A stretch of 64,000 nt of DNA from an uncultured delta proteobacterium (GTDB lineage: Bacteria; Desulfobacterota; Binatia; UBA9968), in the NCBI GenBank assembly GCA_963840855.1, contig CAWJBB010000033.1:1-64000 (forward strand). The letters run 5' to 3'. The notes under the pieces are model-generated. The model worked only from the letters and a program-made list of their open reading frames with translations. It made no database searches and was not told the origin of the DNA. Positions 44,795-63,756 of this stretch are shown here, piece by piece (position 1 is the stretch's first letter; every line of letters starts with the position of its first letter). A program made the position numbers and the translations under genes.

Positions 44795-46456
44795 TTACAC
44801 GCACAGTTGTTGGCGACGCACCTTGCCGGGGAAAACATCGTTGCAACTGCCGTCCTCGACTACAGTTTGGCCGTTGACGACCACGGCTTTCATCCCGGGC
44901 GGGTGCCGCTTGACTTCTTGAGCGTCAATGACGGCTGGCAGCTTCTCGCTGACTAAATCGTCGATCTTGTCGGCGTCAAAAATCGTCACGTCCGCGGGCA
45001 TGCCTTCGCGCAGCAGACCGCGGTTGAGGCGAAGCTTCTCAGCCGGGAACCCGGTCACCTTGTGCACCGCTTTCTCCAGGCTCATCAGATGCTTCTCGCG
45101 ACTCCAGTAGCCGAGCACTCTGACCGGGGCGCCATGCCAGAAGAAACGGTCGAGATGCGCGCCCACGTCGGTGCCGATCAAACTGGTTTCCGACTGAATC
45201 ATCTGCGCCAGAATATCCTGATGGGCATTGGCGAGGCCGTGATAGACGCACTGGGATTTGAGATTGTCCTCCAGCCAGGTATCGAAGAACGCGTCCACCT
45301 CGGCCTTCTCGGTGAGCCGCGCGATTTCCGCGACGTTCTTGCCTTCGAGCTTTTTGAGTTCCGGTTTCTCGATATGTTCGAAAACCATGCGGTCCCAAGA
45401 ATGCCATTCGGGAAATTCCGGTTTGCCGGCTCCCGCAATGCGTTCTTGTTCGAGTTTTTTTCTGATTTCTTTGTCCCCGAGCTTGCTGCTGAGGTCGCTC
45501 GAGTTCTTGATCGCTTCCCAGGTCGGCAGGCCGTTCAAGAAAAAGCAGTCGTTGATGGTAAAGCGGCGGATGTGAGTGTAGGGGATGACGACGCCGAAGA
45601 GCTGTTGGCCGCGCTTCTGCGCTTCCTCCATGTAGGCGATGGCCTTCGGGGCGTCTGCCTTTTGTCCGGGACGCTGGCGAAATTCGTTGCCGATCTGCAA
45701 GCCGCGAATGCGTTTTAGCATGTCGGGAACGCCACTCTCGGGCTGGAGCATCATCTGAAAGCCGTTGAATTGAAAGCAGCCGTTGTATTCCGCCGCTACG
45801 TTGGCCAGCTCGACGATCTCGTTATGATTGGCGAAGGTGCTCGGCGTGCCGGCGTGAATCGCGGGTCCGCCGCGCGGACTGGTGGAAAATCCGATGGCGC
45901 CCAGCTCCATCCCTTCGCGCACCATTTTTTTCATCGCATCGAGTTCCTCCGGTTTTGCTTCGCGCTCATAGGCGGCTTCGCCCATGACCGTAAGCCGAAC
46001 CGGGGAATGGGGCATGAGAGGAAGGCAGTTCACGGCGATATGGCCTTCAATATAATTGAGATATTCGGCGTAGGTGTTCCACTTCCAGTCCTTGTCGTCG
46101 ACATACTTATCCAGCACGCGGCGCAGATACTCGACCAGCACCTTGCGTGGCTCGGGCTTGGCTGGCACCGGCGCGCAGGAGGCGCCGCAATCGCCGATGA
46201 CGATGCTGGTGACGCCGTAATTGACCACCGGATTGCCGTTTGGATACTGGACGATGAAGGCGTCCATGTGGGTGTGGGAGTCGATGAATCCGGGCGCCAC
46301 TACATGTCCTTTGGCGTCGATCTCTTTCTTTCCCGAGCCAAGGTTTTTGCCGATGGCAGTGACTTTTTCGCCGTCGATGGCGACATCGGCTTCGAAGCCT
46401 GGGCTTCCACTGCCGTCAATAACGGTGCCGTTTTTAATTACCAAATCGTGAGCCAT
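44795..46456 (-). CDS. N-acyl-D-amino-acid deacylase (amidohydrolase_3) family protein
   Basis: Motifs DLVIKNGTVIDGSG, APGFIDSHTHMD, IGDCG, GTDVGAH and ADVTIFD. Confidence 0.9.
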   Translation of the reverse strand: MAHDLVIKNGTVIDGSGSPGFEADVAIDGEKVTAIGKNLGSGKKEIDAKGHVVAPGFIDSHTHMDAFIVQYPNGNPVVNYGVTSIVIGDCGASCAPVPAKPEPRKVLVEYLRRVLDKYVDDKDWKWNTYAEYLNYIEGHIAVNCLPLMPHSPVRLTVMGEAAYEREAKPEELDAMKKMVREGMELGAIGFSTSPRGGPAIHAGTPSTFANHNEIVELANVAAEYNGCFQFNGFQMMLQPESGVPDMLKRIRGLQIGNEFRQRPGQKADAPKAIAYMEEAQKRGQQLFGVVIPYTHIRRFTINDCFFLNGLPTWEAIKNSSDLSSKLGDKEIRKKLEQERIAGAGKPEFPEWHSWDRMVFEHIEKPELKKLEGKNVAEIARLTEKAEVDAFFDTWLEDNLKSQCVYHGLANAHQDILAQMIQSETSLIGTDVGAHLDRFFWHGAPVRVLGYWSREKHLMSLEKAVHKVTGFPAEKLRLNRGLLREGMPADVTIFDADKIDDLVSEKLPAVIDAQEVKRHPPGMKAVVVNGQTVVEDGSCNDVFPGKVRRQQLCV

Positions 46457-46535
46457 TAGGAGCGCCTCCTTATGCAGGTAAGATTAATTTGCTTATCCCA
46501 CCGAATGGGTTCGGCTGTCAACTGCTTGATATCCA

Positions 46536-46730
46536 GTTCCTAGTTTCGAGTTTCTGGTTTCAGGTTAATCGGATCGCGGACGTATATCCGTCCGCGTAAA
46601 TCGTCGTGTTACGAATCTCAGTAGTTGAGACTGTTATAGGAGTGGTCTCTAAAGTGGGCTGATTTGAAACTAGAAAGTCTCGAGCTCCGAGACTTGGCTG
46701 GACAGAAACTAGAAACCAGAGACTAGAAAC
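46536..46730. repeat. Tandem-inverted heptamer element with internal hairpins
   Basis: Left arm AGTTCCT AGTTTCG AGTTTCT GGTTTCA; right arm AAACTAG AAACCAG AGACTAG AAAC; inner stems CGCGGACG/CGTCCGCG and GTCTCG/CGAGAC. Confidence 0.7.
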
Positions 46731-46740
46731 TTCCCCTGGT

Positions 46741-48243
46741 CTACACCGCGTCTGCAGGCCGCTCGTATTTGGCTTTGCCCATGCGCTCTTTGATCGTAGG
46801 ATAAGCGATGGTAAAAATCGTGATCGCGATGAGCGACAAGCACGCTGGGAAACAAGCAGCCACTTGGCGCCATAGGCCGCGGTGGATATCCATAAATAAT
46901 TTTCCGCGATCTTACCCAGGGTAAGCCCCAGTATCAGCGGCGGCCGCGGCCAGCCAAATTTGACCATGAAATAGCCGATCACTCCGAAAAGAATTGTCGT
47001 TATGTTATCGTTGATATCGTTATTCGCGGTGAAAGAGCCGATGAAAACGAGGAACATCAAAAAGGGTATCAGTATCGAACCACGAACGAATGTGAGAGCA
47101 GCGAGATGATTCAAAAACATAAAGCAAATACCGGCGACGATGATATTGGCGATAATCAGCACCCAAACCATGGCGAAGGTGACGTCGAGCTTGGATTTGA
47201 GCATTTCCGGTCCAGGGTTGAGTCCGACGATCAACATGGCCCCGAGGAGCAGAGCCATGGCGCCGCTGCCCGGAATACCGAAGGCAATCGTTGGTATCAA
47301 ATCGCCGCCCCGTGTTGAGTTGTTTGCACACGCGGGGCCGAGCAGGCCTTCGATGGCGCCCTTGCCGGCTCTCGATTTGTCTTTTAATCCCTGCACCGCG
47401 TGGGCGTAGGAAATCCACTGGGCCACGTTGGCGCCCAAAACCGGTAGAACCCCAAAGTACACGCCGATCAAACTGCAACGCATGACCAGCCAGAAGTGGC
47501 GGAAGGTGTCTTTGACCCCTTCCATGACGCCGGTTATTTTTCCGGTCTGGCCGCCCGCAATGCTCGTGCCGCGCACCGCGAGATCGACGATTTCCGGTAT
47601 GGCGAACAACCCCACGACAACCGGTATTAGATCGAGCCGGTCCCATAAATAAAGCGATCCGAAGGTGTAGCGCAAAGATCCCGTTTGCGGGTCTACGCCG
47701 ATGGCGGCGAGCATAAGTCCGAGGCCGCCGGCAAGAAGCCCTTTGATCAACGACGGTCCGGCAAGCGTTCCGATAAACGTAATGCCCATGATCGCGATAA
47801 TGAACAATTCCGGGTGAGCCGAACAGCAATACGAGGGGACGCATAATAGGAATGGAGAGGGCTAGTGAGAATGCTCCGATCAGGGATCCCAGCACGGAGC
47901 TTGTTATCGCCGCGCCCAAGGCGCGGCCGGCCTCGCCATTTTTAGACATGGGGTAGCCATCTAATATGAGCGCGGCGGAGGATCCCTCCCCTGGAATCCC
48001 GAAAAGAATCGACGTCAGGTCGCCGGTGGTGCCGGTGACGGCGAGCATGCCGAGCAGAAAGCAGAAGGCTTCGATGGGAGTTTTGATCGTATATGAGAAC
48101 GGCAACATCAACGCGAGGGTTGACAGGCCGCCGATGCCGGGAAGCAGGCCGACCCAAAAACCGATGAAGATCCCCAGCAGCATATATCCGAAAGCCGGCC
48201 AGGCGAGAACTTTCCAAAACCCGATAACGAAGGCTTCAAGCAT
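46741..48243 (-). CDS. tctA: Tripartite tricarboxylate transporter large membrane subunit TctA (frameshifts near 47812 and 46830-46850)
   Basis: GLLPGIG, SILFGIPG, LDGYPM..NGEAGRAL, then GVDPQTG..RYTFG, ANN...G..IPT..FGIPG and PL.LG..LG. The C-terminus IAYPTIKERMGKAKYERPADAV stops at 46741. Confidence 0.9.
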
Positions 48244-48393
48244 ATGAAACTCCTAACGCTCTATTCGACCTGTGGACCATGCTCCATATCGCATCTTGAA
48301 CCGTGGGTCAACCGATTCAGGCCAGGGAGTAATGGAGTTATGCACTTAAAATCAATGGCGTCTTGATTGAGGCCGACGTTCCACGACAATATG

Positions 48394-49488
48394 CTACTTG
48401 CTCAAGATCCGCTTGAGCGCGGCGGTCACGTCGGGCGGCTGATTGACGATTTCCTTTGCCAGCGATTCAAGCTCCTCGCCCGCGACCGGCCCGGCCTCCC
48501 AGCCGCGCTTCTTTAGCTCATCGTTAAATGCAGGGTCCTTAAACATTTTCGTCCAGGCCTGGCGCAGAATGTTGACTCGTTCTGCGGGTACGCCCGGTGT
48601 CGAAACAATGGGCCGCGAACCAAAGCCCCACAGACCCAGATAGGTCGTGATCAAACGCCGCTTGGAGTCGGAAATTTTGTATCGCTCCATCAATTCGAAA
48701 ACAGTCGGTACGTCGGGAATTTTGGGGTGACGTTTCTCTTCGGTCTGGAGGAGAATCCGGACGAAGCCCTTCTTGTGCCAGGTCAAGAATGGTTCGCGGC
48801 CGAAGAACCCTTCTATCGTGATGGCGCGGCAGTTAACTTCGCCGCGTTCCATGGCGAGATCTTGTTCGGAGCCGCCGGGATAGCCGCTTACGACGTTGAA
48901 TTTCAGCCCAAGAGCGTCTTGCAGCAGACGTGGCAGGTCGTAGCCGGTGCTACCCACGCCCGTGGCCGAGCACTTCGGCGGATCGTTGGTGTCGCGCAAA
49001 TCATCCAAGGACTTAAACGGCGCGTCAGAGCGGATATACAGGAGATGTCCGCCGCGGTCAGGCGTGCCGATCCAGCTGAATTTCGGCCAGTCGAACTGGA
49101 CTTCCTTGCTCCCGGTTATTTGCGCAATGATCAGTGCGCCGCCGATCGCGCCCAGGGTAAGCCCATCGGGCTTGGTGACGTTATAAACATGATTCGCCGC
49201 AATCATCGCGCCGGCGCCGGGCATGTTCTGGACGACGAACTCCGGATTTCCCGGAATGTGTTTTCCGAGAAAACGGGCATAGGTGCGTGCCCATTGATCG
49301 TGGTTGTCGCCGGGCTGGTAGCCGACGATCACGCGCAGCGTCTTACCTTGGTAAAAATTCGCTTGCGCGAATGCTGGTTCAAGGTTCAAGGGGTTCAAAA
49401 GTCCAAAAGTTAGAAATCCGAAAACAGAAAGAACCTTGAACAGGTGAACCTTTGAACATTTGAACGAATCGTTGAGCGGATAGTTCAT
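48394..49488 (-). CDS. Bug/TctC substrate-binding protein, array member 9 (repeat-encoded leader)
   Basis: Motifs FYQGKTLRVIVG, IPGNP..VVQNMPGAG, PPKCS and MERGEVNCR. Confidence 0.92.
   Translation of the reverse strand: MNYPLNDSFKCSKVHLFKVLSVFGFLTFGLLNPLNLEPAFAQANFYQGKTLRVIVGYQPGDNHDQWARTYARFLGKHIPGNPEFVVQNMPGAGAMIAANHVYNVTKPDGLTLGAIGGALIIAQITGSKEVQFDWPKFSWIGTPDRGGHLLYIRSDAPFKSLDDLRDTNDPPKCSATGVGSTGYDLPRLLQDALGLKFNVVSGYPGGSEQDLAMERGEVNCRAITIEGFFGREPFLTWHKKGFVRILLQTEEKRHPKIPDVPTVFELMERYKISDSKRRLITTYLGLWGFGSRPIVSTPGVPAERVNILRQAWTKMFKDPAFNDELKKRGWEAGPVAGEELESLAKEIVNQPPDVTAALKRILSK
49377..49465. repeat. 89-bp (GTTCAAG-like)x4 / (TTGAAC-like)x4 tandem-inverted element inside a Bug leader
   Basis: GTTCAAG GTTCAAGGG GTTCAAAA GTCCAA ... 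TTGAACAG GTGAACCT TTGAACAT TTGAAC. Confidence 0.85.
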
Positions 49489-49510
49489 AACGGCCTCACT
49501 TTTGTCAAAT

Positions 49511-49907
49511 TTATTTGCTCAAGAGTTTTTTCAGCCATTCGATCACTTCCGGTGGTTGATCGATCACTTCCTTGGCGTGGATTTGGCCATCGAACGAGGC
49601 GAGGCGCAATGCCCGCCATCACTATTGCGGCGTTTTTGGCGACGTTGTAGACATGGCATTGGACGCGATTCGTGGCCGGATTGCCAGGAATATGTTTCCC
49701 CATGCTGCGGGAATAGGCGCGCGCAAAAAGATCGTGCGTATCGCCGGGTAGATTGCCAACGACGATGCGAATGGTTTTGCCATGGTAAAAATGCTTGCGC
49801 GAATACTCGTTCAAGGTTCAAGGGTTCAAGAGTTCAAGGGTCAGAACGGAGAAGAGTCCGAGAACCTTGAACCCTTGAACTTTTGAACTCTTGAACTGGT
49901 TTGCCAT
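49511..49907 (-). pseudogene. Internally deleted Bug/TctC gene, array member 8
   Basis: Leader MANQFKSSKVQGFKV.., then YHGKTIRIVVGNLPGDTHDLFAR..IPGNP and HVYNVAK, then a jump to the C-terminus AKEVIDQPPEVIEWLKKLLSK*. About 400 bp versus about 1090 bp for its neighbours. Confidence 0.85.
49809..49896. repeat. 88-bp tandem-inverted element inside a Bug leader
   Basis: GTTCAAG GTTCAAGG GTTCAAGA GTTCAA ... TTGAACCC TTGAACTT TTGAACTC TTGAAC; one G shorter than the other copies. Confidence 0.85.
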
Positions 49908-49910
49908 TTC

Positions 49911-50993
49911 TCATTCGCGCCCGAGCACCCACTTCATACGCTCGATGATTTCACGGGGCTGGGTCATGACCTCCTTGGACAGGCTCTGCAGCTCTTCGCC
50001 TTTTGTTGGATCGACCTCCCATCCCTGTTTGGCGGCTTCGCCCAGCAGATCTGGATCGGCGATGGCTTTTGCATAGGCGTCGCGAAGAATCTTAACGCGG
50101 TCGGCGGGGGTGCCGGGAGCGGCGCCAATGGGGCGGCCAAGGGTGGCGGCGGTCAAAATAACTTTGGCGAGACGGCGGCCGGCCTCGGAAGTCTTGTACT
50201 GCTGCATCAGCTCGATCAACGTGGCAGTGTCCTTCAGCCGTGGATCGCGCTTTGCGCCGGTTTGCAGCATGACGCGCACATAGCCGGATTTATGCCAGCG
50301 TCTGTACGGCTCGCGGCCAAAATAGGTTGCGAGCAGCGGCGACCAGCAGATGACTTCATTGCGCTCAATGGCCAATTCAATATCCGGAGCCCCCGGGTAG
50401 CCGCTGACGATCTGAGTTTTGATGCCGAGAGTTTCTTCCAGGAGTCTGGGAATATAGTGGCCAGTGCTGCCCGTACCCGTGCTGCCGCATTTGGCCGGCT
50501 CTTTCGCGTTACGTAAATCGTCGATGGTTTTGAATGGCGCGTCGGCGCGAATGTAATGGACGATGTCGTTCTTTTCCGGCGAGCCGATCCAGTTAAATTT
50601 TGTCCAATCGAATTTCACTTCGGGTCTGCCCACCAGTTGATCGAAATAGAGCGCAGGGTTGACAGCCCCAAGGGTCAACCCGTCGGGTTTGGCAACGCCA
50701 TACACGTAATTGGCGCCGATGATGTTCCCGGCTCCAGGCATGTTCTGCACCACGATCGACGGGTGTCCCGGGATGTACTTGACGATGTGACGCGCCGTGA
50801 GACGCGCCCAGAGATCGTAACCGCCGCCGGTGGTCGAAGCGACGACCAGCGTGAGGGTTTTGCCCTGATAGAAGGGTGTCTGGGCAGACGCCCGTTCAAT
50901 GTTCAAGGGGTTCAAGAGTCCAAGCGCCAGGACAAAGAAGAGTCCGATAACATTGAACGCTTGAACCCTTGAACTTTTGAACGCCTTAGGCAT
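49911..50993 (-). CDS. Bug/TctC substrate-binding protein, array member 7 (repeat-encoded leader)
   Basis: Motifs FYQGKT, GGGYDLWAR, VVQNMPGAG, PAKCG and IERNEVICW. Confidence 0.93.
   Translation of the reverse strand: MPKAFKSSRVQAFNVIGLFFVLALGLLNPLNIERASAQTPFYQGKTLTLVVASTTGGGYDLWARLTARHIVKYIPGHPSIVVQNMPGAGNIIGANYVYGVAKPDGLTLGAVNPALYFDQLVGRPEVKFDWTKFNWIGSPEKNDIVHYIRADAPFKTIDDLRNAKEPAKCGSTGTGSTGHYIPRLLEETLGIKTQIVSGYPGAPDIELAIERNEVICWSPLLATYFGREPYRRWHKSGYVRVMLQTGAKRDPRLKDTATLIELMQQYKTSEAGRRLAKVILTAATLGRPIGAAPGTPADRVKILRDAYAKAIADPDLLGEAAKQGWEVDPTKGEELQSLSKEVMTQPREIIERMKWVLGRE
50894..50982. repeat. 89-bp tandem-inverted element inside a Bug leader
   Basis: GTTCAAT GTTCAAGGG GTTCAAGA GTCCAA ... 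TTGAACGC TTGAACCC TTGAACTT TTGAAC. Confidence 0.85.
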
Positions 50994-51000
50994 CCTTTAC

Positions 51001-52095
51001 TTACTCCCGTCCGATAACCCATTTCATTCGATCGATCACATTTTGCGGCTGACTCACGACCTCTTTGGCCATGCCATCGAGCTCGTCGCCGGTGAGCGGG
51101 GCCAGTTCCCAGCGCCGTTTCTTCACCTCGGCCAAAAGCTCCGGATCATTCATGGTAGCGACGTAGGCCTGCCGCAAAAGCTTCACACGCTCCGCCGGCA
51201 GCGCGGGCGGCGCGACGATGGGACGGCCCAGGGTGGCGGCTGTTAAGACCACCCGCGCGAGGCGCTTGCCCGCCTCCGGGGTTTTATACTGGTCCATCAA
51301 CTCGTAAATGGTTGGCACGCTTTCCAGCCGCGGGTCACGCTTTCTGCCCATTTGAACTAGCACGCGTACGAAGCCTTTCTTGTACCAACTCATGTAAGGT
51401 TCGCGTCCGAAGAAGGTTGCGATGAGCGGCGACCAACAGATGACTTCCCCTCGTTCCACGGCCAGATCGATTTCCGTTCCGCCCTGGTAACCACCGACGA
51501 TGGTGTGCTTCAGTCCGAGTGTTTCTTCGAGAAGTCGCGGTATGTAATGGCCGGTGGTTCCCGTTCCTGAACTACCGCACCGAGGTGGTTCCTTGGCCGT
51601 CCGAATATCTTCCACGGTTTTATACTGTGAGTCGGCGCGCATGTAATGGAGCGGTTCGTTCTGTTCGGGAGAACCAATCCAGGTAAACTTAACCCAGTCG
51701 AATTTGATTTCTGATCGGCCCACCAACTGATCGAAATAGAGCGCGGGAAGAATTGCGCCAAGCGTAAGTCCGTCGGGTTTGGCTAAGTTATAAATCTGGT
51801 TCGCGGCAACGACGGAGCCCGCGCCTGGCACGTTCTGGACGACAATCTCCGGATTGCCGGGAATATGCTTGCCGTAATAGCGAGCGAGCAAGCGCGCCCA
51901 TAGATCATATCCACCGCCGGTTGAGGAGCCGACGACGAGCTTGATGGTCTTGCCTTGGTAAAAAGGCGTCTGGGCAGACGCCAGTTCAAGGTTCAAGAGG
52001 CTCAAGAGTTCAACGACAGAAAAGGCAAGGACTCCGAATACCTTGAACCTTTGAACTTTTGAACTCTTGAACCCGTGGAGCGGTGACCTTTCCAT
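51001..52095 (-). CDS. Bug/TctC substrate-binding protein, array member 6 (repeat-encoded leader)
   Basis: Motifs FYQGKT, GGGYDLWAR, VVQNVPGAG, PPRCG and VERGEVICW. Confidence 0.93.
   Translation of the reverse strand: MERSPLHGFKSSKVQRFKVFGVLAFSVVELLSLLNLELASAQTPFYQGKTIKLVVGSSTGGGYDLWARLLARYYGKHIPGNPEIVVQNVPGAGSVVAANQIYNLAKPDGLTLGAILPALYFDQLVGRSEIKFDWVKFTWIGSPEQNEPLHYMRADSQYKTVEDIRTAKEPPRCGSSGTGTTGHYIPRLLEETLGLKHTIVGGYQGGTEIDLAVERGEVICWSPLIATFFGREPYMSWYKKGFVRVLVQMGRKRDPRLESVPTIYELMDQYKTPEAGKRLARVVLTAATLGRPIVAPPALPAERVKLLRQAYVATMNDPELLAEVKKRRWELAPLTGDELDGMAKEVVSQPQNVIDRMKWVIGRE
51984..52072. repeat. 89-bp tandem-inverted element inside a Bug leader
   Basis: GTTCAAG GTTCAAGAG GCTCAAGA GTTCAA ... 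TTGAACCT TTGAACTT TTGAACTC TTGAAC. Confidence 0.85.
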
Positions 52096-52141
52096 GAATA
52101 GTATCAGCCTCCGTGCTCCGATCTAATCACCATTGCCGGTT

Positions 52142-53174
52142 CTACATCCCGATCAGTTTTTTTACTTTCTCCACGATGTCCGGCGGGGTGGTCATGACTT
52201 CTTTGGCAAGCTTGTCGAGTTCCTCGCCGGCGGCCGGGTCGATATCGAGCCGGCGCCTTTCCGCCTCAGCCAAGAAGGCCGGATCACTGATCGTCTTGTT
52301 AAACGCGTCGCGCATGATCTTCACTCGGTCCGCCGGTACGCCCGGAGGGAAAACCATGGGCCGGCCAAACTCGTCGGACGCCACCACGACCTTTACGAGG
52401 CGCCGAACATTTTCGGAGGTCTTATACTTGTTCATCAGCTCGTCGAACAACGGCACGTCTTTAAGCCTTGGGTCGGGGCTGCCGCCCGTCTGGTAAAGCA
52501 CGCGAACGAAGTTTTTCTTGCGCCAGGTAATAAACGGCTCACGCGAAAAAAAGGCATTGATGGTAAAAGCCCGGCAAACGACTTCGCCGCGCTCCACGGC
52601 GAGGTCGATGTCCGATCCCGCGACATACCCCGAGACGATGTCGAACTTGGTGCCAAACGCATCTTCCATGAGCTTTGGCATATAATACGCCGACGAGGTG
52701 ACTCCGGTTGCGCCGCACTTGGGCGGACTGGACGCAGTTCGAATATCTTCGATCGTCTTATAGGGCGCGTCGGCGCGCATGTACATGAGACTCTTCGAGC
52801 TTACCGGACTGCCAATCCAGATAAACTTACTCCAGTCGAATTTGGCCTCCGGCCGCTTGGCGAGTTGCTCGAAGTAGAGCGCGGGATAAATCGCGCCGAG
52901 GGTTAGACCGTCAGGTTTGGCGATATTGTAAACCTGATTGGTGCCGATCAATCCCGCCGCGCCGGCCACGTTTTGAATGATGATGTTTGGGTTTCCCGGA
53001 ATGTGCTTGGGCATGAATTCCGCGACCAGGCGCGGGTAAAGGTCATAGACGTCGCCCGGCTTGGCGGCCGCTATTATCGTGACAGTCTTACCCTGATAGT
53101 AGGGAGTCTGGGCGGATACACTTGGAGACCCACGCGACGAACAAAAGCAGAAAGTAGATGACGCTCCGATGCAT
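52142..53174 (-). CDS. Bug/TctC substrate-binding protein, array member 5 (frameshift in leader near 53125)
   Basis: GAGGAG RBS and MHRSVIYFLLLFVAW at 53174 shift into PSVSAQTPYYQGKT; motifs PPKCG and VERGEVVCR. Confidence 0.88.
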
Positions 53175-53218
53175 AAAATCTCCTCTTGATGATTCACTCG
53201 ACGAGCCCGTTTAATTCT

Positions 53219-54247
53219 CTATGTCCCTAATAATTTTTTCATTCGTTCAATGACTTCCGGCGGTTGTGCGACAATCTCTTTTGCCAAAGCTTCCAGTTCT
53301 TCGCCGGGAACCGGATCCAGGTCCAATCGTTTCTTCTTGGCGTCGTCCAAAAGGTCCGGATCGCGCACGGACCTCATGAAGGCCTCACGGAGAATTTTCA
53401 CCCGGTCCGCTGGGATACCCGGAGTCGCGACGATGGGACGGCCAATCTCGTTGGCGGCCAAGATCACCGCAGCCAAGCGGCGCGCGGAATCGGCGGTTTT
53501 GTGTTGGTCCATGAGTTCATGGAGAGTTGGAACCTCAGGCAAATTAGCGTCCCGTTTCTTGCCGGTTTGAATGATTACACGAACAAAACCTTTCTTACGC
53601 CAGGTGTGGAAAGGCTCGCGGGCAAAGAAGGCGGCGATCGTGAAGGCGCGGCATTGTACCTCGCCTCGCTCTACGGCCAGGTCGACATCCGTGCCGGAGT
53701 TGTAACCGGTAACGATGTTGAATTTCGCCCCGATGGTCTCTTCCAAGAGCTTGGGCAGGTAGTAGGCAGATGAAGCCGTGCCTTCGGCGCCGCACTTGGG
53801 CGGCGTGGAAGCTTTGCGGATATCCTCGACGGTTTTATAGGGAGTGTCGCTCCTCATGTAGAGCAGATGATGCGACACGGTGGTGTTGCCGATCCAGGTA
53901 AACTTTTGCCAGTCGAACTGGACCTCCTTCCGTCCGACGAGCTGATCGAAGTAGAGCGCGGGTTGGATTGACCCGATGGTGAGGCCATCAGGCTTGGCTA
54001 CCCCGTAGATGTAATTGGCCGCAACCATGGAGGCCACGCCCGGCATGTTTTGCACGATGACATTCGGAGTGCCGGGAATATGTTTTGGGATGAACTGGGC
54101 AACCAGGCGCGCATAGAGATCATACACACTGCCCGCTGGGGTACCGGCCACAAGCCGAATGGTTTTACCCTGGTAGAAGGGGGCCTGCGCGTGAAGGCTA
54201 AAGGGCCACAGTAACACGACGAGAAAAATGAAAAAGCTCGAAAACAT
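53219..54247 (-). CDS. Bug/TctC substrate-binding protein, array member 4
   Basis: Conventional signal peptide; motifs FYQGKT, IVQNMPG, PPKCG and VERGEVQCR. Confidence 0.93.
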   Translation of the reverse strand: MFSSFFIFLVVLLWPFSLHAQAPFYQGKTIRLVAGTPAGSVYDLYARLVAQFIPKHIPGTPNVIVQNMPGVASMVAANYIYGVAKPDGLTIGSIQPALYFDQLVGRKEVQFDWQKFTWIGNTTVSHHLLYMRSDTPYKTVEDIRKASTPPKCGAEGTASSAYYLPKLLEETIGAKFNIVTGYNSGTDVDLAVERGEVQCRAFTIAAFFAREPFHTWRKKGFVRVIIQTGKKRDANLPEVPTLHELMDQHKTADSARRLAAVILAANEIGRPIVATPGIPADRVKILREAFMRSVRDPDLLDDAKKKRLDLDPVPGEELEALAKEIVAQPPEVIERMKKLLGT

Positions 54248-54450
54248 GAAACGGCCACCTTCTTTCCATACGCAACCGCAGGCTGGTTACCCTCAGTTGT
54301 GCCGTGACGTCACTGGGTCGGCGTCTCGACAGGGTAGTCAACGGCTCGTCAATCACCCAAAAGTTTGCGCCTCCGCCGGAAATTTGGCCGGAGCATATCC
54401 CTCAAGGCTGCCAGGTTGCAACAACCCCGAGGGATTGCCGGTGAAATTTC

Positions 54451-55489
54451 CTATTTTCCGCCCAGTAACTTCTCCATACGCTGTACGACGTCAGGGGTTG
54501 CCGCCATGACCTCTTTTGCCAAGGCCTCGATCTCCGCGCCGGTCGCCGGATCCATTTCCAGGCGGCGCTTTTCGGCCGTCGCCAAAAGCGCCGGATCGCT
54601 CACCGACTTGTCGAACGCGTCACGCAGTATTTTCAGCCGGTCCGCCGGAACTCCGGGAGCGGTAACCAGGGGGCGGCCAAACTCGCCGGCGGACAAAACG
54701 ACTTTTGCCAGGCTTCTTCCGGCGGCCGTCGTTTTATACCGGTCCATCAATTCGTAGATTGTCGGCGCTTCCTTGAGACGGGCGTCGCGTTTGGCGCCGC
54801 TCTGCATCAGAGTGTTGACGAAACCGCGCTTGCGCCAGGAAATGAACGGCTCCCGGGCGAAATAGGCGGTGATCGTAAAGGCGCGGCAAACCACCTCGCC
54901 GCGCTCGACGGCGAGATCCACATCTTGACCGGACTGATAGCCTAACACGATGTCGAATTTCGTTCCGAGGGTTTCTTCCATGAGTTTGGGCAGGTAATAG
55001 CCGGTGGAAGTAATACCGTTGGAGCCGCACTTGGGCGCCGCCGAGGCATTACGGATATCATCCATCGATTTATAAGGAGCGTCCGACCGCATATATAATA
55101 AGTGGTTCGAGGTGACCGGATTGCCGACCCAGCCGAACTTGGTCCAGTCGAATTTGGCTTCGGGCTTTTTCGTGAGCTGCTCGAAATAGAGCGCCGGGTA
55201 GATGGCGCCGATGGTCAAGCCATCCGGTTTGGCGACGTTGTAGACCTGATTGGCCGCGATCATCGACGCGGCGCCCGGCACGTTCTGGATAATGATATTC
55301 GGATTGCCGGGAATGTATTTCGGCATGAACTCAGCGAGCATGCGCGGGTACAAGTCATAGGCGTCGCCGGCTTTGGTGCCAACAATAATTGTTATCGTTT
55401 TTCCTTGATAAAATGGGGTCTGAGCCTGGGCATGGCCGGCCACGGCAGCTTGCCATCAGGATTATTAGAGCGACCAACAAACAATGCAT
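54451..55489 (-). CDS. Bug/TctC substrate-binding protein, array member 3 (frameshift in leader near 55445)
   Basis: AAGGAGG RBS and MHCLLVALIILMAS at 55489 shift into VAGHAQAQTPFYQGKT; motifs APKCG and VERGEVVCR. Confidence 0.88.
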
Positions 55490-55543
55490 TTCGATACTTC
55501 CTCCTTAAAAGATTTTCGACCGAACTTTAACATGTTAAAAAAT

Positions 55544-56576
55544 TTATAACCCACTAATTAATTCGAGTATTTTTTTCACCCGTGCCAGGACATCCGGCGG
55601 TTGCTGCAAAATTTGCTGAGCGAGTTTTTCCAAATGCGCGCCGCTCGTAGGATCGACATCCATTCTTTGCTTCCGCGTCTCGGCGAGCAGTTCGGGATCT
55701 TTCATGGACTGATCGAAGGCCCGCCGCAGCATTTCGACGCGCTCCGCCGGCGTCCCCGGACCGGAAATAATCGGCCGTCCGAAGGACTCGGCCGCGAGGA
55801 TCACCTGGGCAACGCGGCGACTGTTCTCGGGCACGTTTTCTTTGTCGAAGATCTCCGCGATGGTCGGTACATCAGGGATTCTTTCATCACGCTTGGCGCC
55901 GGTATAGAGCAGGATTCGAACAAAGTTTTTCTTTTGCCAACTCAAGAACGGCTCGCGTCCGAAGAAGGGCGACGCGGTCATGCCACGGCACATGACTTCG
56001 CCTTTTTCGACCGCGATGTCGATCTCGGACCCGCCGGGATATCCTAAAACAGTATTGATTTTTAGAGGCGGCAAGGTGTCCTCCAACATGCGCGCCAGGA
56101 TGAAATCGGTGCTGACTGTTCCTGTAGAGCCGCATTTGGGCGGCTCTTTGGCGTTTTTCACGTCCGAGATGGTCTTGTAAGGACTGTCGGCGCGCATATA
56201 AAGAATCATCGGTTCCATGACCGGAGAGCCTATCCAGGCGAACTTGCGCAGGTCGAACTTCACTTCAGGCCGGCCGACGAGTTGGTCGAGATAGAGGCCG
56301 CTGCTTGGAAAACCGATGGTCAAACCGTCGGGTTTGGCGACGTTGTAGACGTAATTGGTCGCTACGACGGAACCCGCGCCGGGCATATTCTGCACGATGA
56401 AACTCGGATTGCCTGGGATATACTTCGGCATGAAGCGCGACAGCAGGCGCGCCCAACGATCGTAAAACCCTCCGGTGGTAAAGCCGACCACAACCCTGAC
56501 CTGTTTGCCTTGGTAAAAGGGAGCGGCTGGGCGTGAACGTGGAAGAGCCAAAGCTCGCCCAAATAGACCGGTTCAT
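55544..56576 (-). CDS. Bug/TctC substrate-binding protein, array member 2 (leader disrupted by small indels)
   Basis: GGGAG RBS and ATG at 56576; fragments LWLFHVHAQ and APFYQGKQ lie in different frames; motifs GGFYDRWAR, PPKCG and VEKGEVMCR. Confidence 0.85.
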
Positions 56577-56765
56577 TTGTGCTCCCTGCTCGCATGGGTG
56601 CTCGGCCTGGTCGAGATGATTCGGATTGGATCTCGACGGCCGGCGGGTACGAGTGCGATTGACGTAAGCCTCGCGGAGGGTGACGCCAAGATGAACTGCT
56701 GATTAGACTAAGAGATCGCCATGTCGATGCAACTCCATTTCATTCGTCTGGTTTTCGTCACGACC

Positions 56766-57797
56766 TTATTCGGCGAGAACTTTTTTGACCCGCTCCATGA
56801 CATCGCTCGGCTGGTTCATGAGTTCTTTCATCAGAACTTGTAGCTCTTCGCCGGGCGTATACTCCATATCCATCTGGCCCTTTTTCGCTTCTTCGATAAG
56901 GCCGGGATCTCTCATGGCTTTGGCATAGGCATCCCGCAGCATCTTCACTCGATCCGGCGGGTTGCCCGGGCCAGCCACCATCGGCCGGCCAAATTCTCCG
57001 CCCGCCAAAACGATGCGCGTTACGCCGCGCATAACTTCTGGAGTCTTATATTGGTCCATGAGTTCGAAGAGCGTCGGTGCATCGCCCATGCGCGGATCGC
57101 GCTTCGGTCCGCCTTGGAGTAGGTGACGGTCGAAGCCCTTCTTGTGCCAGGTCTCGAACGGCTCGCGGCCAAAGTGAGGAGGGATGTCCATGCCCCGGCA
57201 GACGATTTCACCGCGCTCCACCGCGACGTCGATCTCGCTGCCGCCCTGATATCCCGTCACCGTGTTGAGCTTTGCCTTGAAAGCTTCGTCCATGAGTCGC
57301 GCGATAAGATAGCCCGTACTGGCTGTCCCCGTCGAGCCGCATTTGGGCGGTTCGCTGGCTTTAATGATATCCGCAACGGTCTTGAACGGACTATCGGCGC
57401 GGAAATAGAGCATCGTCGGCGCCTTTTCCTGGGTGCCGATAAATTCAAATTTGCGCATGTCGAACTTGACTTCTTTACGGCCGACGATTTGATCGAGGTA
57501 CAAGCTATTGATCGGCACCAACAAGGTCAGACCGTCGCTTTTGGCCAGGTTGTAAACATAGTTGGCCGCGATCACCGAACTCGCCCCAGGCATGTTTTGC
57601 ACGACGAAGTTGGGGTTTCCGGGTATGTATTTTGGCATATAGCGCGACAGCAGTCTCGCCCAGCGGTCGTAGAAGCCTCCGGGCGTAAAACCGACGATAA
57701 CTCTAACGGTCTTATCCTGGTAGAACGGCGTGGCTTGAGCCCGAAGGAACGAGGCGGAGGAAACGATCAAAAAGACGACGAGGATTAGAGTGCCCAT
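56766..57797 (-). CDS. Bug/TctC substrate-binding protein, array member 1
   Basis: GGAGG RBS, signal peptide, FYQDKT, GGFYDRWAR, PPKCG and VERGEIVCR. Confidence 0.93.
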   Translation of the reverse strand: MGTLILVVFLIVSSASFLRAQATPFYQDKTVRVIVGFTPGGFYDRWARLLSRYMPKYIPGNPNFVVQNMPGASSVIAANYVYNLAKSDGLTLLVPINSLYLDQIVGRKEVKFDMRKFEFIGTQEKAPTMLYFRADSPFKTVADIIKASEPPKCGSTGTASTGYLIARLMDEAFKAKLNTVTGYQGGSEIDVAVERGEIVCRGMDIPPHFGREPFETWHKKGFDRHLLQGGPKRDPRMGDAPTLFELMDQYKTPEVMRGVTRIVLAGGEFGRPMVAGPGNPPDRVKMLRDAYAKAMRDPGLIEEAKKGQMDMEYTPGEELQVLMKELMNQPSDVMERVKKVLAE

Positions 57798-57980
57798 TAG
57801 CCCTCCTGACTTTTCCTATCTAGCATGCTCCCGGCAGTCCTATTCATCGGTCACCCGCGTTGAGGCGGGAAGAACTTCTGGATTAAGCCGGTGAATGCTT
57901 GTGGCAAAATGAGTTGACAAAGGGGAATTGCCGGATCGCGTGTGATGCGAGTTAACGCCGTTTGCACGCTGCTATGAATT

Positions 57981-58469
57981 TTATTCCCATCCAAGCCAGG
58001 CAAAGATGCGCCCCTCGGGAAAGGGCAGTGTAAGGAGCTTTACGAACAGCAACCAAAAAACGCCATAGGCAAGCGCCGTCAAACCGATGGACAGGCCCCA
58101 TGACTCCTTCGATTGAATTTTGAGGTACGTAAACATCATTACGACAATGCTGATAGGGAATCCCACAAGCCAAACCCCGAGCAAAAAGCAAAAAAACCAG
58201 GTAAACATGACAATAGCCCGCTTTTTTGCCAGCGCCGGATCAATGTCTTTGGTAAATTGAAAATCCATCGGCGTGCCGTCGGATGTTTGCTTGGGCTTAT
58301 ATCCTCTTAAATCCAGAACGACCTGGATAACGGCCAAGATCACCATCGGGAAGCCGATGGCCCAAGGGTAAAGCCTGGCCTGGAGTCGCCAATCCTGGGC
58401 GACGTAAACCCAAACGATAAAAAATATTAGTGCGCAAATACTAAAAATCGCCGGCCCTCTGATTTTCAC
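57981..58469 (-). CDS. tctB: Tripartite tricarboxylate transporter small membrane subunit TctB
   Basis: About 160 aa with 4-5 TM segments; ARLYP, LVGF and LF..LL.LPFPEG pattern; co-oriented with the Bug array and tctA. Confidence 0.85.
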   Translation of the reverse strand: MKIRGPAIFSICALIFFIVWVYVAQDWRLQARLYPWAIGFPMVILAVIQVVLDLRGYKPKQTSDGTPMDFQFTKDIDPALAKKRAIVMFTWFFCFLLGVWLVGFPISIVVMMFTYLKIQSKESWGLSIGLTALAYGVFWLLFVKLLTLPFPEGRIFAWLGWE

Positions 58470-58482
58470 GATGTTATCCTTC

Positions 58483-59514: not shown

Positions 59515-59667
59515 CTCCTTCGAATACTATCGGATTTACCCAGGCTCCACAGGTTTCGCTATACCGCGCCACCGATTACCATACGACACGATTGAAGGTC
59601 AATGGCGATTTACCCTTTTTCACTGGATGCAACTGTGGTAAATGGGCTCCAAGCATCGAGAGTCATC

Positions 59668-60864: not shown

Positions 60865-60866
60865 AT

Positions 60867-60955
60867 AGGCGAGAGGCGAAAGGCGGTAGGCGTGAGAGTC
60901 GACGGAAAAGCGTGCGTTGCCCTAGAACTCATGCCTGTTGCCTCTCGCCTCACGC
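60867..60955. repeat. Tandem-inverted heptamer element (AGGCGNN)n...(NNYGCCT)n
   Basis: AGGCGAG AGGCGAA AGGCGGT AGGCGTG ... CATGCCT GTTGCCT CTCGCCT CACGC; intergenic between the two ACAD genes. Confidence 0.75.
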
Positions 60956-60968
60956 GCTGAATTCTTTT

Positions 60969-62074: not shown

Positions 62075-62084
62075 AAAATTTTTA

Positions 62085-62167
62085 AGGCAAGAGGCATGAG
62101 GCACTGAGGCGCGAGCAGGGCGAGACGAATTTCGTCTTCCTCTACTGTAGCCTCGCGCCTCACGCCT
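62085..62167. repeat. Tandem-inverted heptamer element of the AGGC family, second copy
   Basis: AGGCAAG AGGCATG AGGCACTG AGGCGCG ... TAGCCT CGCGCCT CACGCCT. Confidence 0.72.
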
Positions 62168-62186
62168 GCGACTGAAAGGAGCTAAG

Positions 62187-63339: not shown

Positions 63340-63756
63340 TGGCTGAAGCAAGGACTCCGCAAAAAAGCTTGCCCAAGATCAATCCCGTCGACGCGCCGTT
63401 TTGGCAAGGCGCCGCAAACGATAAGTTTCTTCTGCAGAAGTGCAAGAGCTGCGGCAAGGTGCAATTCTTCCCGCGCGTCGCCTGTGTCGACTGCTTCGGC
63501 GAGATGGCCTGGATCGAAGTCGAAGGGCACCGGCAAGATTCATACTTTCACGCTAGTGCGCGTGCCGCGCAACCCGGCTTTCAAGGAAGAGGTGCCGATC
63601 TATTATATCAACGTGATCTTGGATGAAGGTGTAATCATTGAAAGCCGATTGGTCGGCGATTCCAAAGAAAAAGTGAAAATGGGCGACCGGGTCAAAGTCG
63701 TTTATCAGGCGACCCACGATCCGACGATAAAGCTGCCGTGCTTTGAGCTGGCATAG
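63339..63756 (+). CDS. DUF35 Zn-ribbon/OB-fold protein (frameshift near 63522)
   Basis: PFWQG, CKSCG..FFPR..C.DC, then G.GKIHTFT...P....V.LDEG....RLV...KMG.RV. Confidence 0.9.

Follow-up and report, generated by a model that had tools for sequence, protein, structure and literature searches.

A tandem-unit hairpin repeat as the putative signal peptide of a Bug/TctC solute-binding protein clade

We find that an 88-89-nt tandem-unit inverted repeat, carried at the 5' end by three intact Bug/TctC genes and by a decayed one in the window (the whole 64-kb stretch of DNA analysed here), appears to be translated as the predicted leader of these proteins. On balance we favour a history in which a hairpin repeat of the intercistronic type was absorbed as the putative Sec leader of a Bug/TctC clade and was exchanged between paralogs, so that a non-coding type of repeat would be doing duty as working protein sequence, here a predicted export signal. 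The observation behind the original prediction is confirmed, and its interpretation is partly supported.

The element and the genes that carry it

The four copies lie exactly where they were predicted, all on the minus strand, but the four Bug genes said to carry them prove to be three intact Bug/TctC genes and a decayed pseudogene, which holds the copy at 49809-49896. The genes, the elements and their parts are as follows.

51001-52095, minus strand: gene 4, Bug/TctC solute-binding protein of 364 aa (PF03401, 57.2 bits)
51984-52072, minus strand: element copy of gene 4 (model match 99.3 bits)
52043-52072, minus strand: gene 4 element, first arm; four GTTCAA at 8-nt spacing, reads FKSSKVQRFKV
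Minus strand: gene 4 element, loop; encodes FGVLAFSVV
51984-52013, minus strand: gene 4 element, second arm; reads ELLSLLNLE
49911-50993, minus strand: gene 3, Bug/TctC protein of 360 aa (Pfam TctC, 55.4 bits)
50894-50982, minus strand: element copy of gene 3 (model match 99.1 bits)
50953-50982, minus strand: gene 3 element, first arm; n-region FKSSRVQAFNV
About 50924-50952, minus strand: gene 3 element, loop; h-region IGLFFVLAL
50894-50923, minus strand: gene 3 element, second arm; GLLNPLNIE, spacing 8-9-7
About 49502-49914, minus strand: gene 2, Bug pseudogene remnant (tblastn; intact relatives P0141 and P0157)
49809-49896, minus strand: element copy of gene 2; 26-nt arms, 92% complementary
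48394-49488, minus strand: gene 1, Bug/TctC protein of 364 aa, PGDNHDQWAR subgroup (Pfam TctC, 48.8 bits)
49377-49465, minus strand: element copy of gene 1; FKCSKVHLFKV / LSVFGFLTFG / LLNPLNLE (model match 100.9 bits)

The translations agree with the layout first described, GTTCAA x4, loop and TTGAAC x4 coding for FKSSKVQxFKV, a hydrophobic core and LLNPLNLE-xAxAQ: the first arm, with its units at 8-nt spacing, gives the basic n-region, the loop the hydrophobic core, and the second arm the c-region, with A-x-A and then Q. Allowing at most one mismatch, GTTCAANNGTTCAA matches 18 times in the window versus 0.21 in shuffles (maximum 1 in 100 shuffles), and 17 of the 18 matches fall inside the four copies, as do 28 of the 70 GTTCAA hexamers in the window. 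Run over the 64 kb with filters off, a covariance model of the four copies recovers those four alone, the next match having E = 0.2, and the remaining six Bug genes (52142-53197, 53219-54247, 54451-55443, 55544-56551, 56766-57797 and 19421-20509) lack the element, as had been claimed. Because their loops and flanks are homologous, we conclude that the four copies descend from one ancestral leader; independent insertions are not supported. The copy in gene 1 is the most diverged, with GTTCAC replacing one first-arm unit, and that in gene 2 is the best palindrome of the four.

The element begins at nt +24 in genes 1 and 4 (ATG at 49488 and 52095, respectively) and at nt +12 in gene 3 (ATG at 50993), and it lies 69 nt past the gene 5 stop codon in gene 4 and 18 nt past the gene 4 stop codon in gene 3. 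Gene 2 retains about 115 codons at its N-terminal end and about 35 at its C-terminal end, with the roughly 210 codons between them gone; tblastn recovers gene 1 residues 5-120 in one frame and 330-364 in another. It carries a TGA within the second arm of the element, where the intact relatives P0141 and P0157 read LLNPLNLE, plus further frameshifts. Other frameshifts, besides those of gene 2, are present in the window. One candidate ATG of gene 2 (49914-49912) shares ATGA with the gene 3 stop codon, and the gene 2 element is shorter by 1 nt, the second-arm CCCC having become CCC; this loss, in a C run, may be a sequencing error for that base.

Reading frame, start codons and codon conservation

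Translation through the second arm is possible only because its units are spaced 8-9-7 and not 8-8-8 nt: this spacing, found in 3/3 intact genes, keeps every TTGAAC outside the TGA frame, and the pseudogene spacing of 8-8-7 creates the in-frame TGA. The first arm, (GTTCAANN)x4, is stop-free in all frames and gives Lys and Arg to the n-region. Solved Bug/TctC structures are homologous to gene 3 from residues 39-46 onward, and paralogs with ordinary leaders reach a common mature start, AQ-x-x-FYQGK. None of 120 relatives of gene 7 has the leader described here, and 120/120 join a conventional one to the same A-x-A-Q-x-x-FYQGK start. Conservation is 0.97 at A37 and 1.00 at Q38. From these sequence features we infer that the element is translated as a predicted Sec-type signal peptide of Bug/TctC proteins, which would direct Sec export, although an unusually long c-region (7-13 residues) containing Glu and Arg, and a Glu that interrupts the hydrophobic stretch of gene 4, count against predicted export.

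Were the true starts downstream, the element would be an untranslated 5' or intercistronic hairpin and the leader an annotation artefact. Gene callers do over-extend Bug ORFs through other upstream repeats, as in MNFGFWIFDFGL-type N-termini, and at locus L030 the element immediately precedes the ribosome-binding site in a TctC gene with an ordinary leader and is clearly untranslated. In genes 1, 3 and 4, however, codon 1 is the sole ATG, GTG or TTG ahead of the hydrophobic core, with none between the first arm and that core, and a start past the core would strip a periplasmic binding protein of its signal peptide altogether. The stop-prone arm is open in frame in 3/3 intact genes and in 72 database proteins, and the annotated ATGs are preceded by Shine-Dalgarno-like purine runs; an artefact is already disfavoured and, in our judgement, very improbable.

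Conservation of synonymous sites in the leader clearly exceeds that in the saturated mature domains, a constraint that the original prediction had proposed to look for. The Bug paralogs of the window are 49-66% identical (32-53% at four-fold sites), and at conserved degenerate residues the leader keeps the same codon in 14/17, 13/19 and 14/16 cases, compared to 61/157, 63/157 and 86/202 in the mature parts (Fisher p = 6.5e-4, 0.018 and 4.8e-4, respectively). The arms are written in minor codons (GTT 0.16, AGT 0.10, TCA 0.05, CTT 0.10, TTG 0.20). Mean pairwise identity among 74 leader-bearing proteins is 0.67 in the first arm, 0.45 in the loop, 0.83 in the second arm and 0.82 in the mature domain, figures biased by the choice of sequences with recognisable arms; the conventional leaders of the gene-7 clade are at 0.43, versus 0.85 for the mature part. 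When gene 3 is compared with its closest relatives, the leader evolves faster than the mature part, with 3 changes in 40 leader residues between P0003 and gene 3 at an overall identity of 99%. A leader that is defined at the nucleotide level and translated is supported.

Spread, free-standing hairpins and exchange between paralogs

Of 122 database relatives of genes 3 and 4, 72 have both arms of the leader, 34 none of it and 12 a part. The hairpin is dispensable, many lineages of the same clade showing ordinary leaders or arms that have decayed. Sequences closely related to these proteins carry the source label 'Deltaproteobacteria' or Binatia. When the leader profile is searched against 1.84 billion representative proteins, 35 of 45 matches run on into a Bug mature start, 9 are pieces of leader with a truncation or frameshift and 1 is an unrelated repeat protein; a family scan of 26 profile matches places 0/26 in any family but TctC. 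The idea of a portable secretion leader thus holds within the Bug family and is not supported across families, the informative matches all being Bug proteins or fragments.

Related units outside the Bug genes had been listed at 16828, 19282, 22176 and 35716; the first two are a one-armed run and a small hairpin, and the last two are degenerate and model-negative. Features of the window outside the four copies are as follows.

16828-16865: five units in a run, forming one arm, at a gene 3' end
19282-19317: small hairpin, -12.6 kcal/mol
60867-60950 and 62085-62165: hairpins of the same architecture with other cores, between co-directional genes

The covariance model finds no full free-standing copy in the 64-kb window, so that dispersal in this genome is unsupported, and the free-standing hairpins lie in other genomes. 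Hairpins with its architecture and core are almost always intergenic there: among the matches listed, 27 of 123 loci, chosen by the arm pattern itself, match the full model and 0/123 hold a coding copy, no credible ORF spans the hairpin in 23 loci examined, and of 14 loci flanked by an ORF on each side, 10 have both ORFs co-directional and the gap between them occupied by the hairpin. Such look-alikes may have arisen convergently, through a general process of repeat formation, and not be relatives.

Leader and mature-domain histories, when compared as had been suggested, are discordant, with 15 subtype changes on 71 tips versus a shuffled mean of 17.1, so that leader subtypes are scattered near-randomly over the mature-domain tree; presence or absence of the leader requires 17 changes, of which well-supported branches enforce at least 6. 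Different leader subtypes are carried by 26 pairs whose mature domains are 93% identical or more, among them P0006 and P0024 (99.7% identical), and P0123 has a gene-3 leader on a gene-1-type mature start. Leaders appear to move between Bug paralogs, as judged from these sequences; the mosaic pattern is drawn from metagenome-assembled proteins, in which a repeated 5' module is a prime spot for assembler chimeras, and the mosaic pairs and P0123 may be such chimeras.

We propose, as the probable course of events, that the element belongs to a non-coding repeat type with tandem 7-9-nt units in inverted arms around a loop, hairpins that would normally occupy short gaps between co-directional genes. 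A large Bug/TctC clade of uncultured bacteria would go back to an ancestor in which a hairpin of this kind, bordering the 5' end of a Bug gene, entered the ORF and then supplied an entire Sec-type signal peptide, one arm becoming the n-region, the loop the core and the other arm the c-region. This leader module would later have been inherited and lost many times and, through recombination with the conserved arms and the conserved FYQGKT mature start as anchor points, exchanged among Bug paralogs. We infer this direction of events, with the non-coding hairpin first.

What maintains the arms, and the closest known systems

The element can form an mRNA hairpin, as was suggested: the sense RNAs of genes 1, 2, 3 and 4 have predicted folds of -28.5, -48, -45.5 and -36 kcal/mol (z = -3.85, -7.67, -7.54 and -3.44, respectively), and in the four DNA copies 6 pairs are changed on both sides versus 2.0 in shuffles, a number matched by 1 of 500 shuffles. 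In a coding hairpin of dual use, the mRNA stem-loop itself would be selected. It lies 14-69 nt past the previous Bug stop codon and 12-24 nt into the next gene, where it could shield the 3' end of the upstream cistron, be an RNase III site, or throttle downstream initiation; any of these would govern how much each tandem binding-protein gene yields relative to the others. REP hairpins between malE and malF set the relative output of those genes. The folds and two-sided changes are consistent with this role, as are synonymous-site conservation restricted to the arms, the gap-filling free-standing copies, the pseudogene hairpin, kept and even improved amid decay elsewhere in the pseudogene, and 13 G-U versus 1 A-C cells on the sense strand, although this last count is biased, the structure having been predicted on that strand. 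The finding of 0 promoter-like sites in 48200-53300 versus 2.2 expected weakly favours one transcript. We nonetheless consider selection on the stem-loop somewhat unlikely: the antisense strand is about equally stable (-23.6, -50.3, -39.3 and -36.5 kcal/mol), the covariation rests on four DNA copies, and the arms have decayed in many lineages in which the protein is otherwise conserved.

That the leader matters as a peptide alone, its arms a neutral relic kept alike by template switching and gene conversion among paralogous leaders and functional at neither the RNA nor the DNA level, is quite conceivable, though we lean against it. Template switching is reported to homogenise inverted-repeat arms, coding sequence included (PMC7202029, PMC8794818, PMC8604942), and the 1-nt loss in the pseudogene improves the arm match as such correction would; the subtype scatter is what frequent conversion predicts, and the hairpin is repeatedly lost with the gene retained. 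Yet the loops have strongly diverged and the arms have not, so that conversion tracts would need to be very short, and leaders within one genome are no more alike than orthologous leaders across genomes, the gene 3 leader being near-identical to that of P0003 but sharing 66-70% identity with the leaders of genes 1 and 4. Nearly all intact copies also keep the 1-nt bulge (9-nt spacing) uncorrected, which shows that selection acts on the reading frame but does not show that it acts on the stem. By analogy with a proposal for Geobacter metallireducens, the units might instead be a DNA-level array of nucleoid or regulatory protein sites, or a recombination handle, with an architecture like that of the Geobacter class 1-3 sites (PMC2700814). 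Several core families side by side in the window and the apparent leader exchange, with P0123 coupling leader and mature start of different types, fit such an array, which we regard as improbable: no candidate binding protein was found, the 8-nt period is out of step with the DNA helical repeat, the Geobacter proposal is itself putative, and P0123 and the mosaic pairs may be chimeras. Within the absorbed-hairpin history that we favour, our best guess is that homogenisation by template switching and gene conversion, plus a retained mRNA-hairpin role at cistron boundaries, keeps the arms palindromic.

REP/BIME elements of enterobacteria are short palindromes that lie between co-directional genes and fold into mRNA hairpins, the best-known example following the binding-protein gene malE, and the look-alike hairpins sit in similar places; REPs, however, are single palindromes of 20-40 bp, often GTAG/CGTC-tagged and linked to RAYT transposases, and the Bug element has tandem-unit arms and no such tag. 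Similar in tandem-unit inverted architecture are the class 1 (GTTGCTYN), 2 and 3 sites of G. metallireducens, reported as 3-5 tandem 7-9-nt units, multicopy and mostly intergenic, paired with an inverted set at variable distance and with insertion sequences at a fixed distance (PMC2700814). Their core differs from GTTCAANN, they are termed putative IHF/HU sites, and the passages on them describe no coding copy forming a signal peptide (PMC2700814).

Rickettsia palindromic elements are reported as hairpin repeats that are intergenic and also translated in frame in conserved protein genes (PMC2229807, PMC10969869), and the Bug element likewise forms a hairpin, has intergenic counterparts and is read in frame. 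Compared by description, they are 105-150 bp and lack tandem octamers, versus 88-89 nt of tandem units here; they occupy surface loops of many unrelated genes and are neutral or slightly harmful, whereas the Bug element would be one ancestral capture, in one family, as a whole predicted signal peptide. The 168-bp Yersinia MITE YPAL/RU-2, palindromic, mobile and hydrophobic in translation, is reported as part of the predicted signal peptide of YPO1552, a putative exported protein (PMC2229807). As described, YPO1552 is a single hypothetical protein to which the repeat gives only part of the predicted leader; in the Bug element the n-, h- and c-regions correspond to arm, loop and arm, the host family is well known as periplasmic, and the leader module is conserved in at least 72 protein clusters.

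Anatomy of the element and its predicted translation

The 88–89-nt hairpin element is found near the 5' end of genes in a Bug/TctC array, with the following arrangement.

Bug/TctC genes and the element copies they carry
48394–57797, minus strand: head-to-tail array of Bug/TctC genes (Pfam PF03401)
19421–20509: further Bug/TctC gene (PF03401)
48394–49488, minus strand: gene 1, intact, with an 89-nt element starting 24 nt after the ATG
49911–50993, minus strand: gene 3, intact, with an 89-nt element starting 12 nt after the ATG
51001–52095, minus strand: gene 4, intact, with an 89-nt element starting 24 nt after the ATG
between genes 3 and 1, minus strand: gene 2, a pseudogene remnant holding an 88-nt copy

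The four copies of the original prediction are present, but only three of the genes that hold them are intact, the fourth being a pseudogene remnant. Genes 1, 3 and 4 score 48.8, 55.4 and 57.2 bits against PF03401 (TctC; cut-off 27), and PDB relatives include BugD, Bug27 and TctC-type binding proteins. Read in the coding sense, the element consists of four GTTCAA units at exact 8-nt intervals, then a ~27-nt loop and four TTGAAC-type units, the arms being 30-nt tandem arrays. The pattern of adjacent unit pairs is matched 18 times versus 0.21 times in shuffles, with 17 of the 18 matches inside the four copies, which also hold 28 of the 70 GTTCAA hexamers of the window. With a covariance model of these copies, the 64 kb give no further match (next best E = 0.2), and among Rfam covariance models nothing curated matches the element: a chance-level mir-335 hit in 46000–64000 has 22.1 bits where the gathering score is 64 (E = 0.72).

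Homology to solved Bug/TctC structures starts at residues 39–46 of gene 3, and element-free paralogs carry ordinary leaders of ~22 residues, e.g., MFSSFFIFLVVLLWPFSLHA/QAPFYQGK (slash, mature start), that join the A-x-A-Q-x-x-FYQGK start common to the element-leader genes; the same junction is present in all 120 gene 7 relatives compared, gene 7 being a further paralog of the array. In genes 1, 3 and 4, no ATG, GTG or TTG other than the annotated ATG precedes the hydrophobic stretch, and the next in-frame start follows the core, such that a binding protein begun there would have no leader. The first arm reads F-K-S-S-K-V-Q-x-F-K-V, with a net charge of about +2 in gene 1, +3 in gene 3 and +4 in gene 4, giving an n-region that is positively charged as in Sec-type leaders and whose Lys/Arg residues are encoded by the GTTCAA units. 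The loop encodes 9–12 hydrophobic residues, and the second arm reads (E/G)-L-L-N-P-L-N-L-E, followed by x-A-x-A/Q, in a c-region that is long and charge-bearing. The uncharged core spans 12 residues in genes 1 and 3 (LSVFGFLTFGLL, IGLFFVLALGLL), compared with about 10–15 for the Sec criterion; in gene 4 and most relatives, a Glu follows 9–10 core residues (FSVVELL, LTLELL). Ala occupies positions −3 and −1 (ASA/Q, AFA/Q) at the same place as in the ordinary-leader paralogs, with conservation of 0.97 at A37 and 1.00 at Q38.

These translations agree with the proposed correspondence of one arm to the n-region, the loop to the hydrophobic core and the other arm to the c-region. The leaders of genes 1, 3 and 4 contain neither a twin-arginine (RR) motif nor an L-x-x-C lipobox, which argues against a Tat or lipoprotein signal peptide, and we infer Sec-type (signal peptidase I) export of the three products via the leader. 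The element is real, translated and of old origin: in one protein family, a hairpin repeat of a non-coding type encodes a complete predicted signal peptide. It would offer an unusually clear view of non-coding repeat DNA becoming a working protein module, in which hairpin arm, loop and arm correspond one-to-one to n-, h- and c-regions. For annotation, leaders of this kind resemble repeat artefacts yet are real in dozens of protein clusters.

The spacing of the units bears on how the element is read. GTTCAA is stop-free in all frames, and the first arm keeps perfect 8-8-8 spacing. TTGAAC reads TGA in one of three frames and, since 8 = 2 mod 3, three such units 8 nt apart must meet the TGA frame. 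In the intact copies the second arm is spaced 8-9-7, with the same sum of 24 as 8-8-8, and its units therefore fall in frames reading xLE, LN, LN and xE; the resulting LLNPLNLE is retained in most relatives. Spacings of 7 and 9 nt are also found in non-coding copies elsewhere, so that 8-9-7 is consistent with, but short of proof of, adaptation to coding, of which the stop-avoiding spacing would be a visible scar.

Constraint on the arms and descent of the four copies

We compared codons at conserved residues with degenerate codons between the leader and the mature part of each gene pair.

Identical codons at conserved residues (Fisher test)
Genes 1 and 3: leader 14/17, mature 61/157, p = 6.5e-4
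Genes 1 and 4: leader 13/19, mature 63/157, p = 0.018
Genes 3 and 4: leader 14/16, mature 86/202, p = 4.8e-4

The arm codons are minor ones in this genome (8721 codons: GTT 0.16, AGT 0.10, TCA 0.05, CTT 0.10, TTG 0.20), and the codon comparison argues that the arms are constrained as nucleotides. Among 74 leader-bearing proteins, selected for recognisable arms and hence biased in the arm figures, mean pairwise identity is 0.21 at the extreme N-terminus, 0.67 in the first arm, 0.45 in the loop, 0.83 in the second arm and 0.82 in the mature part; in the gene 7 clade, with ordinary leaders, leader identity is 0.43 versus 0.85 for the mature part.

Predicted folding of the sense RNA of each copy
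Gene 1: −28.5 kcal/mol, z = −3.85
Gene 2: −48.0 kcal/mol, z = −7.67
Gene 3: −45.5 kcal/mol, z = −7.54
Gene 4: −36.0 kcal/mol, z = −3.44

Antisense folds are about as stable (−23.6, −50.3, −39.3 and −36.5 kcal/mol for genes 1–4), with no consistent strand asymmetry. Across the four copies 97.7% of cells pair, and six pairs are changed on both sides, compared with a shuffled value of 2.0 (one shuffle in 500 was as high), a signal of stem covariation that, from four related sequences, is only suggestive.

What keeps the palindrome could be a role in mRNA at cistron boundaries, a bias of template switching or conversion, or a role at the DNA level. The hairpins of the Bug array lie 14–69 nt past the preceding stop codon, the position that free-standing copies occupy, and if the stem also acts in mRNA the element would be a compact example of dual coding; the antisense strand folds about equally well. 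Template switching is documented to homogenise the arms of inverted repeats in the available portions of PMC7202029, PMC8794818 and PMC8604942. Inversion of the loop by such switching is rejected, as the two loop subtypes of the window copies align co-linearly instead of as reverse complements. An intrinsic terminator is likewise rejected: the element has no T run, and none of the seven terminator-like sites (6.5 expected) corresponds to it. Right after the gene 4 element (51965–51982, minus strand), a short GC-rich stem, GGCGTCTGCCCAGACGCC, arises from the ASAQTPFY codons, with TTTTTA behind it. A simple scan flags this as terminator-like; such sites are no commoner in the region than by chance (7 vs 6.5).

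The four copies align over their full length, including loops and flanks, with a mean column identity of 84% (95 columns) or 74% (141 columns), and therefore descend from one leader; the homologous flanks and loops indicate inheritance instead of independent MITE-type insertions. The element-bearing genes are old paralogs, with 49–66% protein identity and four-fold degenerate sites that are 32–53% identical. The gene 2 remnant matches gene 1 residues 5–120 in one frame and 330–364 in another, with ~210 codons missing, and a TGA inside its second arm is met from both candidate starts. Two intact gene 2 relatives elsewhere (database proteins P0141 and P0157) read LLNPLNLE, so the 8-nt spacing of the pseudogene (CCCC to CCC) is derived. 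Loss of the extra base leaves the pseudogene copy more perfectly palindromic than the other three (26-nt arms, 92% complementary) and yields the TGA.

Other reading frames of the region are interrupted as well. TctA (46560–48243) breaks near 47800 into two frames that overlap, and in three of the six ordinary-leader Bug genes (52142–53197, 54451–55443, 55544–56551) the leader region is out of frame with an intact mature part; this could reflect real decay concentrated in leaders or assembly indel errors. These frameshifts bear on how far the single-base difference of the pseudogene copy can be trusted.

Distribution of the leader and its apparent exchange between paralogs

We find that the leader is common among close relatives of the window proteins. 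In a set of 122, comprising the best 120 relatives of gene 3 (70–99% identity) and two of gene 4, both arms are present in 72, one in 12 and neither in 34, with four N-terminally truncated; some relatives are labelled ‘Deltaproteobacteria bacterium’, ‘Candidatus Binatia’ or ‘Methylomirabilota’ in their sources. A word search with gene 4 residues 1–42 had returned two matches from 12 candidates; the rarity that this suggested is contradicted by the 72 of 122, and the low count stems from the word prefilter and is no sign of rarity. Among 1.84 billion representative proteins, a profile made from the leaders of the three intact window genes gives 45 matches at E up to 0.001, of which 35 run straight into a Bug mature start, nine are short, truncated or frameshifted pieces and one is an unrelated repeat protein. 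A Pfam scan of 26 of these identifies TctC in six (three above the cut-off) and another family in none, and the leader is therefore specific to Bug proteins; the portable leader of the original prediction finds no support across protein families among these matches. Within the family the leader is carried by several subgroups: the mature part of leader-bearing fragments is nearest to gene 7 (87% over 52 residues), genes 8 and 9 (69–72% over 65) or gene 1; none of the 120 closest full-length gene 7 relatives has the leader.

The leader and the mature domain have different histories. On a FastTree phylogeny of mature domains (131 rows), leader presence or absence changes 17 times (shuffled mean 33.2, minimum 24), with at least six changes forced by well-supported branches, and the junction type, AQTP versus AQAN, changes 23 times. 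The loop subtype (…SVVE versus …LTLE) changes 15 times on 71 tips compared with a shuffled mean of 17.1 (minimum 12), and its distribution is therefore essentially random; moreover, 26 pairs with mature domains at least 93% identical differ in loop subtype. The anticipated discordance of leader and mature trees is borne out by these two observations. In the pair P0006/P0024, the mature domains are 99.7% identical and MTNSFKSS is common to both, and the differences between the two extend from where the first arm ends as far as the junction. P0123 has exactly the gene 3 leader, joined to a gene 1-type mature start and then to unrelated sequence. These patterns are the mark of leader cassettes exchanged between paralogs, with the arms and FYQGKT as anchors; a serious caveat is that these are metagenome assemblies in which a repeated 5' module is prone to chimeras. 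The leader cassette is a mosaic among paralogs, some of it possibly due to such chimeras.

In P0146 the leader is fused to the last ~40 residues of TctC, a remnant of the same kind as the window pseudogene; P0123 and P0146 represent either real rearrangement at the leader or assembly chimeras. A third repeat family of the window, ATTTTSG-type 7-mers at 63761–63785, is found in translation (NFGFSIL.../NFGFWIFDFGL) at the predicted N-termini of the Bug relatives P0044, P0061, P0074, P0077, P0084, P0095 and P0166, in P0044 and P0166 in place of the first arm of the leader. From these, Bug gene 5' regions in this lineage seem to attract tandem short-unit repeats.

Non-coding look-alikes and known repeat systems

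Searching 185,579 species genomes for runs of three units yields at least 123 stretches in many phyla, mostly plain tandem runs, with units on both strands nearby in at least 22 of the 123 loci listed. The full-length model matches 27 of the listed loci at E up to 0.01, two of which (L023 and L024) overlap on one contig. The listed matches are titled Binatia (L029, L032, L074), ‘Deltaproteobacteria’ MAGs, Fluviicola, Ferruginibacter, Tepidisphaeraceae, Phycisphaerales, cyanobacteria and others, and several genomes give more than one locus among them, e.g., Fluviicola, Dino_bin29 and Binatia SMAG_U1024. The GTTCAA core alone occurs, among the matches listed, in MAGs labelled Binatia or Deltaproteobacteria, Bacteroidota, Planctomycetota, cyanobacteria and others. 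No credible ORF crosses the hairpin in the 23 loci examined, and where ORFs flank the hairpin on either side they are co-directional in 10 of 14 loci, with the hairpin filling the gap. None of the 123 listed loci is a coding copy, and only one, L030, has a TctC gene nearby: at 3124–3237 of CAVUVW010000011.1, an untranslated GTTCAA-type element with 9-nt spacing lies just upstream of the RBS of an ordinary-leader TctC gene, an arrangement that plausibly pictures the state before capture. Since these loci were picked by arm pattern, they show the architecture as non-coding DNA and not common descent. Of the dispersed, free-standing copies that had been proposed, hairpin look-alikes exist in other genomes, but the window itself holds four coding copies, partial runs at 16828 and 19282 and no free full copy.

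Other repeats of the window
60867–60950: AGGCG-type hairpin of the same architecture, fold −48.5 kcal/mol, z = −5.25
62085–62165: AGGCG-type hairpin of the same architecture, fold −44 kcal/mol, z = −4.75
46535–46561 and 46703–46731: AGTTTC-/AGAAAC-type 7-mer runs, inverted, ~140 nt apart

Each AGGCG-type hairpin (tandem 7–8-nt units, loop, inverted units) lies between co-directional acyl-CoA dehydrogenase-type genes and fills the gap there. The AGTTTC/AGAAAC runs lie at the 3' end of TctA, whose ORF apparently continues through them. At 16828–16865, a one-armed run of five GTTCAA-type units, reading TTGAAC on the minus strand, overlaps the stop codon of a minus-strand ORF with an ATE_C domain (arginyl/leucyl-transferase-like).

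A broader reading, which we regard as doubtful, is that the leader is a domesticated member of a widespread and essentially undescribed class of intercistronic hairpins built from tandem 7–9-nt units, that the class has a common role, dependent on some factor, in processing mRNA or setting operon stoichiometry, and that the 89 nt in Bug genes would combine cistron-boundary control with a complete signal peptide, the arms serving as homology blocks that move leaders between paralogs. The comparison brings into view a type of hairpin with tandem-unit arms that, in many phyla, lies between co-directional genes. To our knowledge, the tandem-unit repeat class of Geobacter has gone unexplained since 2009.

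In the literature searched (Bug/TctC leaders, in-frame palindromes, STRR/heptanucleotide repeats), we found no account in which an element of this kind encodes a Bug/TctC leader. REP/REPIN sequences comprise a single palindrome of 20–40 bp with a GTAG or CGTC tag and a RAYT, whereas the element has arms that are 30-nt tandem arrays and no such end tag was seen, and we reject that assignment. The element is more like the class 1–3 sites of Geobacter, with 3–5 tandem units of 7–9 nt and an inverted set across a variable spacer; this repeat class was noted in 2009, and the accessible part of that report catalogues paired tandem-octanucleotide sets (GTTGCTYN and two other classes) in Geobacter metallireducens and proposes them, without test, as global-regulator sites (PMC2700814). 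In-frame palindromic repeats (RPE) are known from Rickettsia (excerpts of PMC2229807 and PMC10969869), and a Yersinia MITE is reported in the former excerpt as part of the predicted signal peptide of YPO1552. Exaptation of a repeat into coding sequence is an already known kind of event, to which the element adds an instance and no new category.
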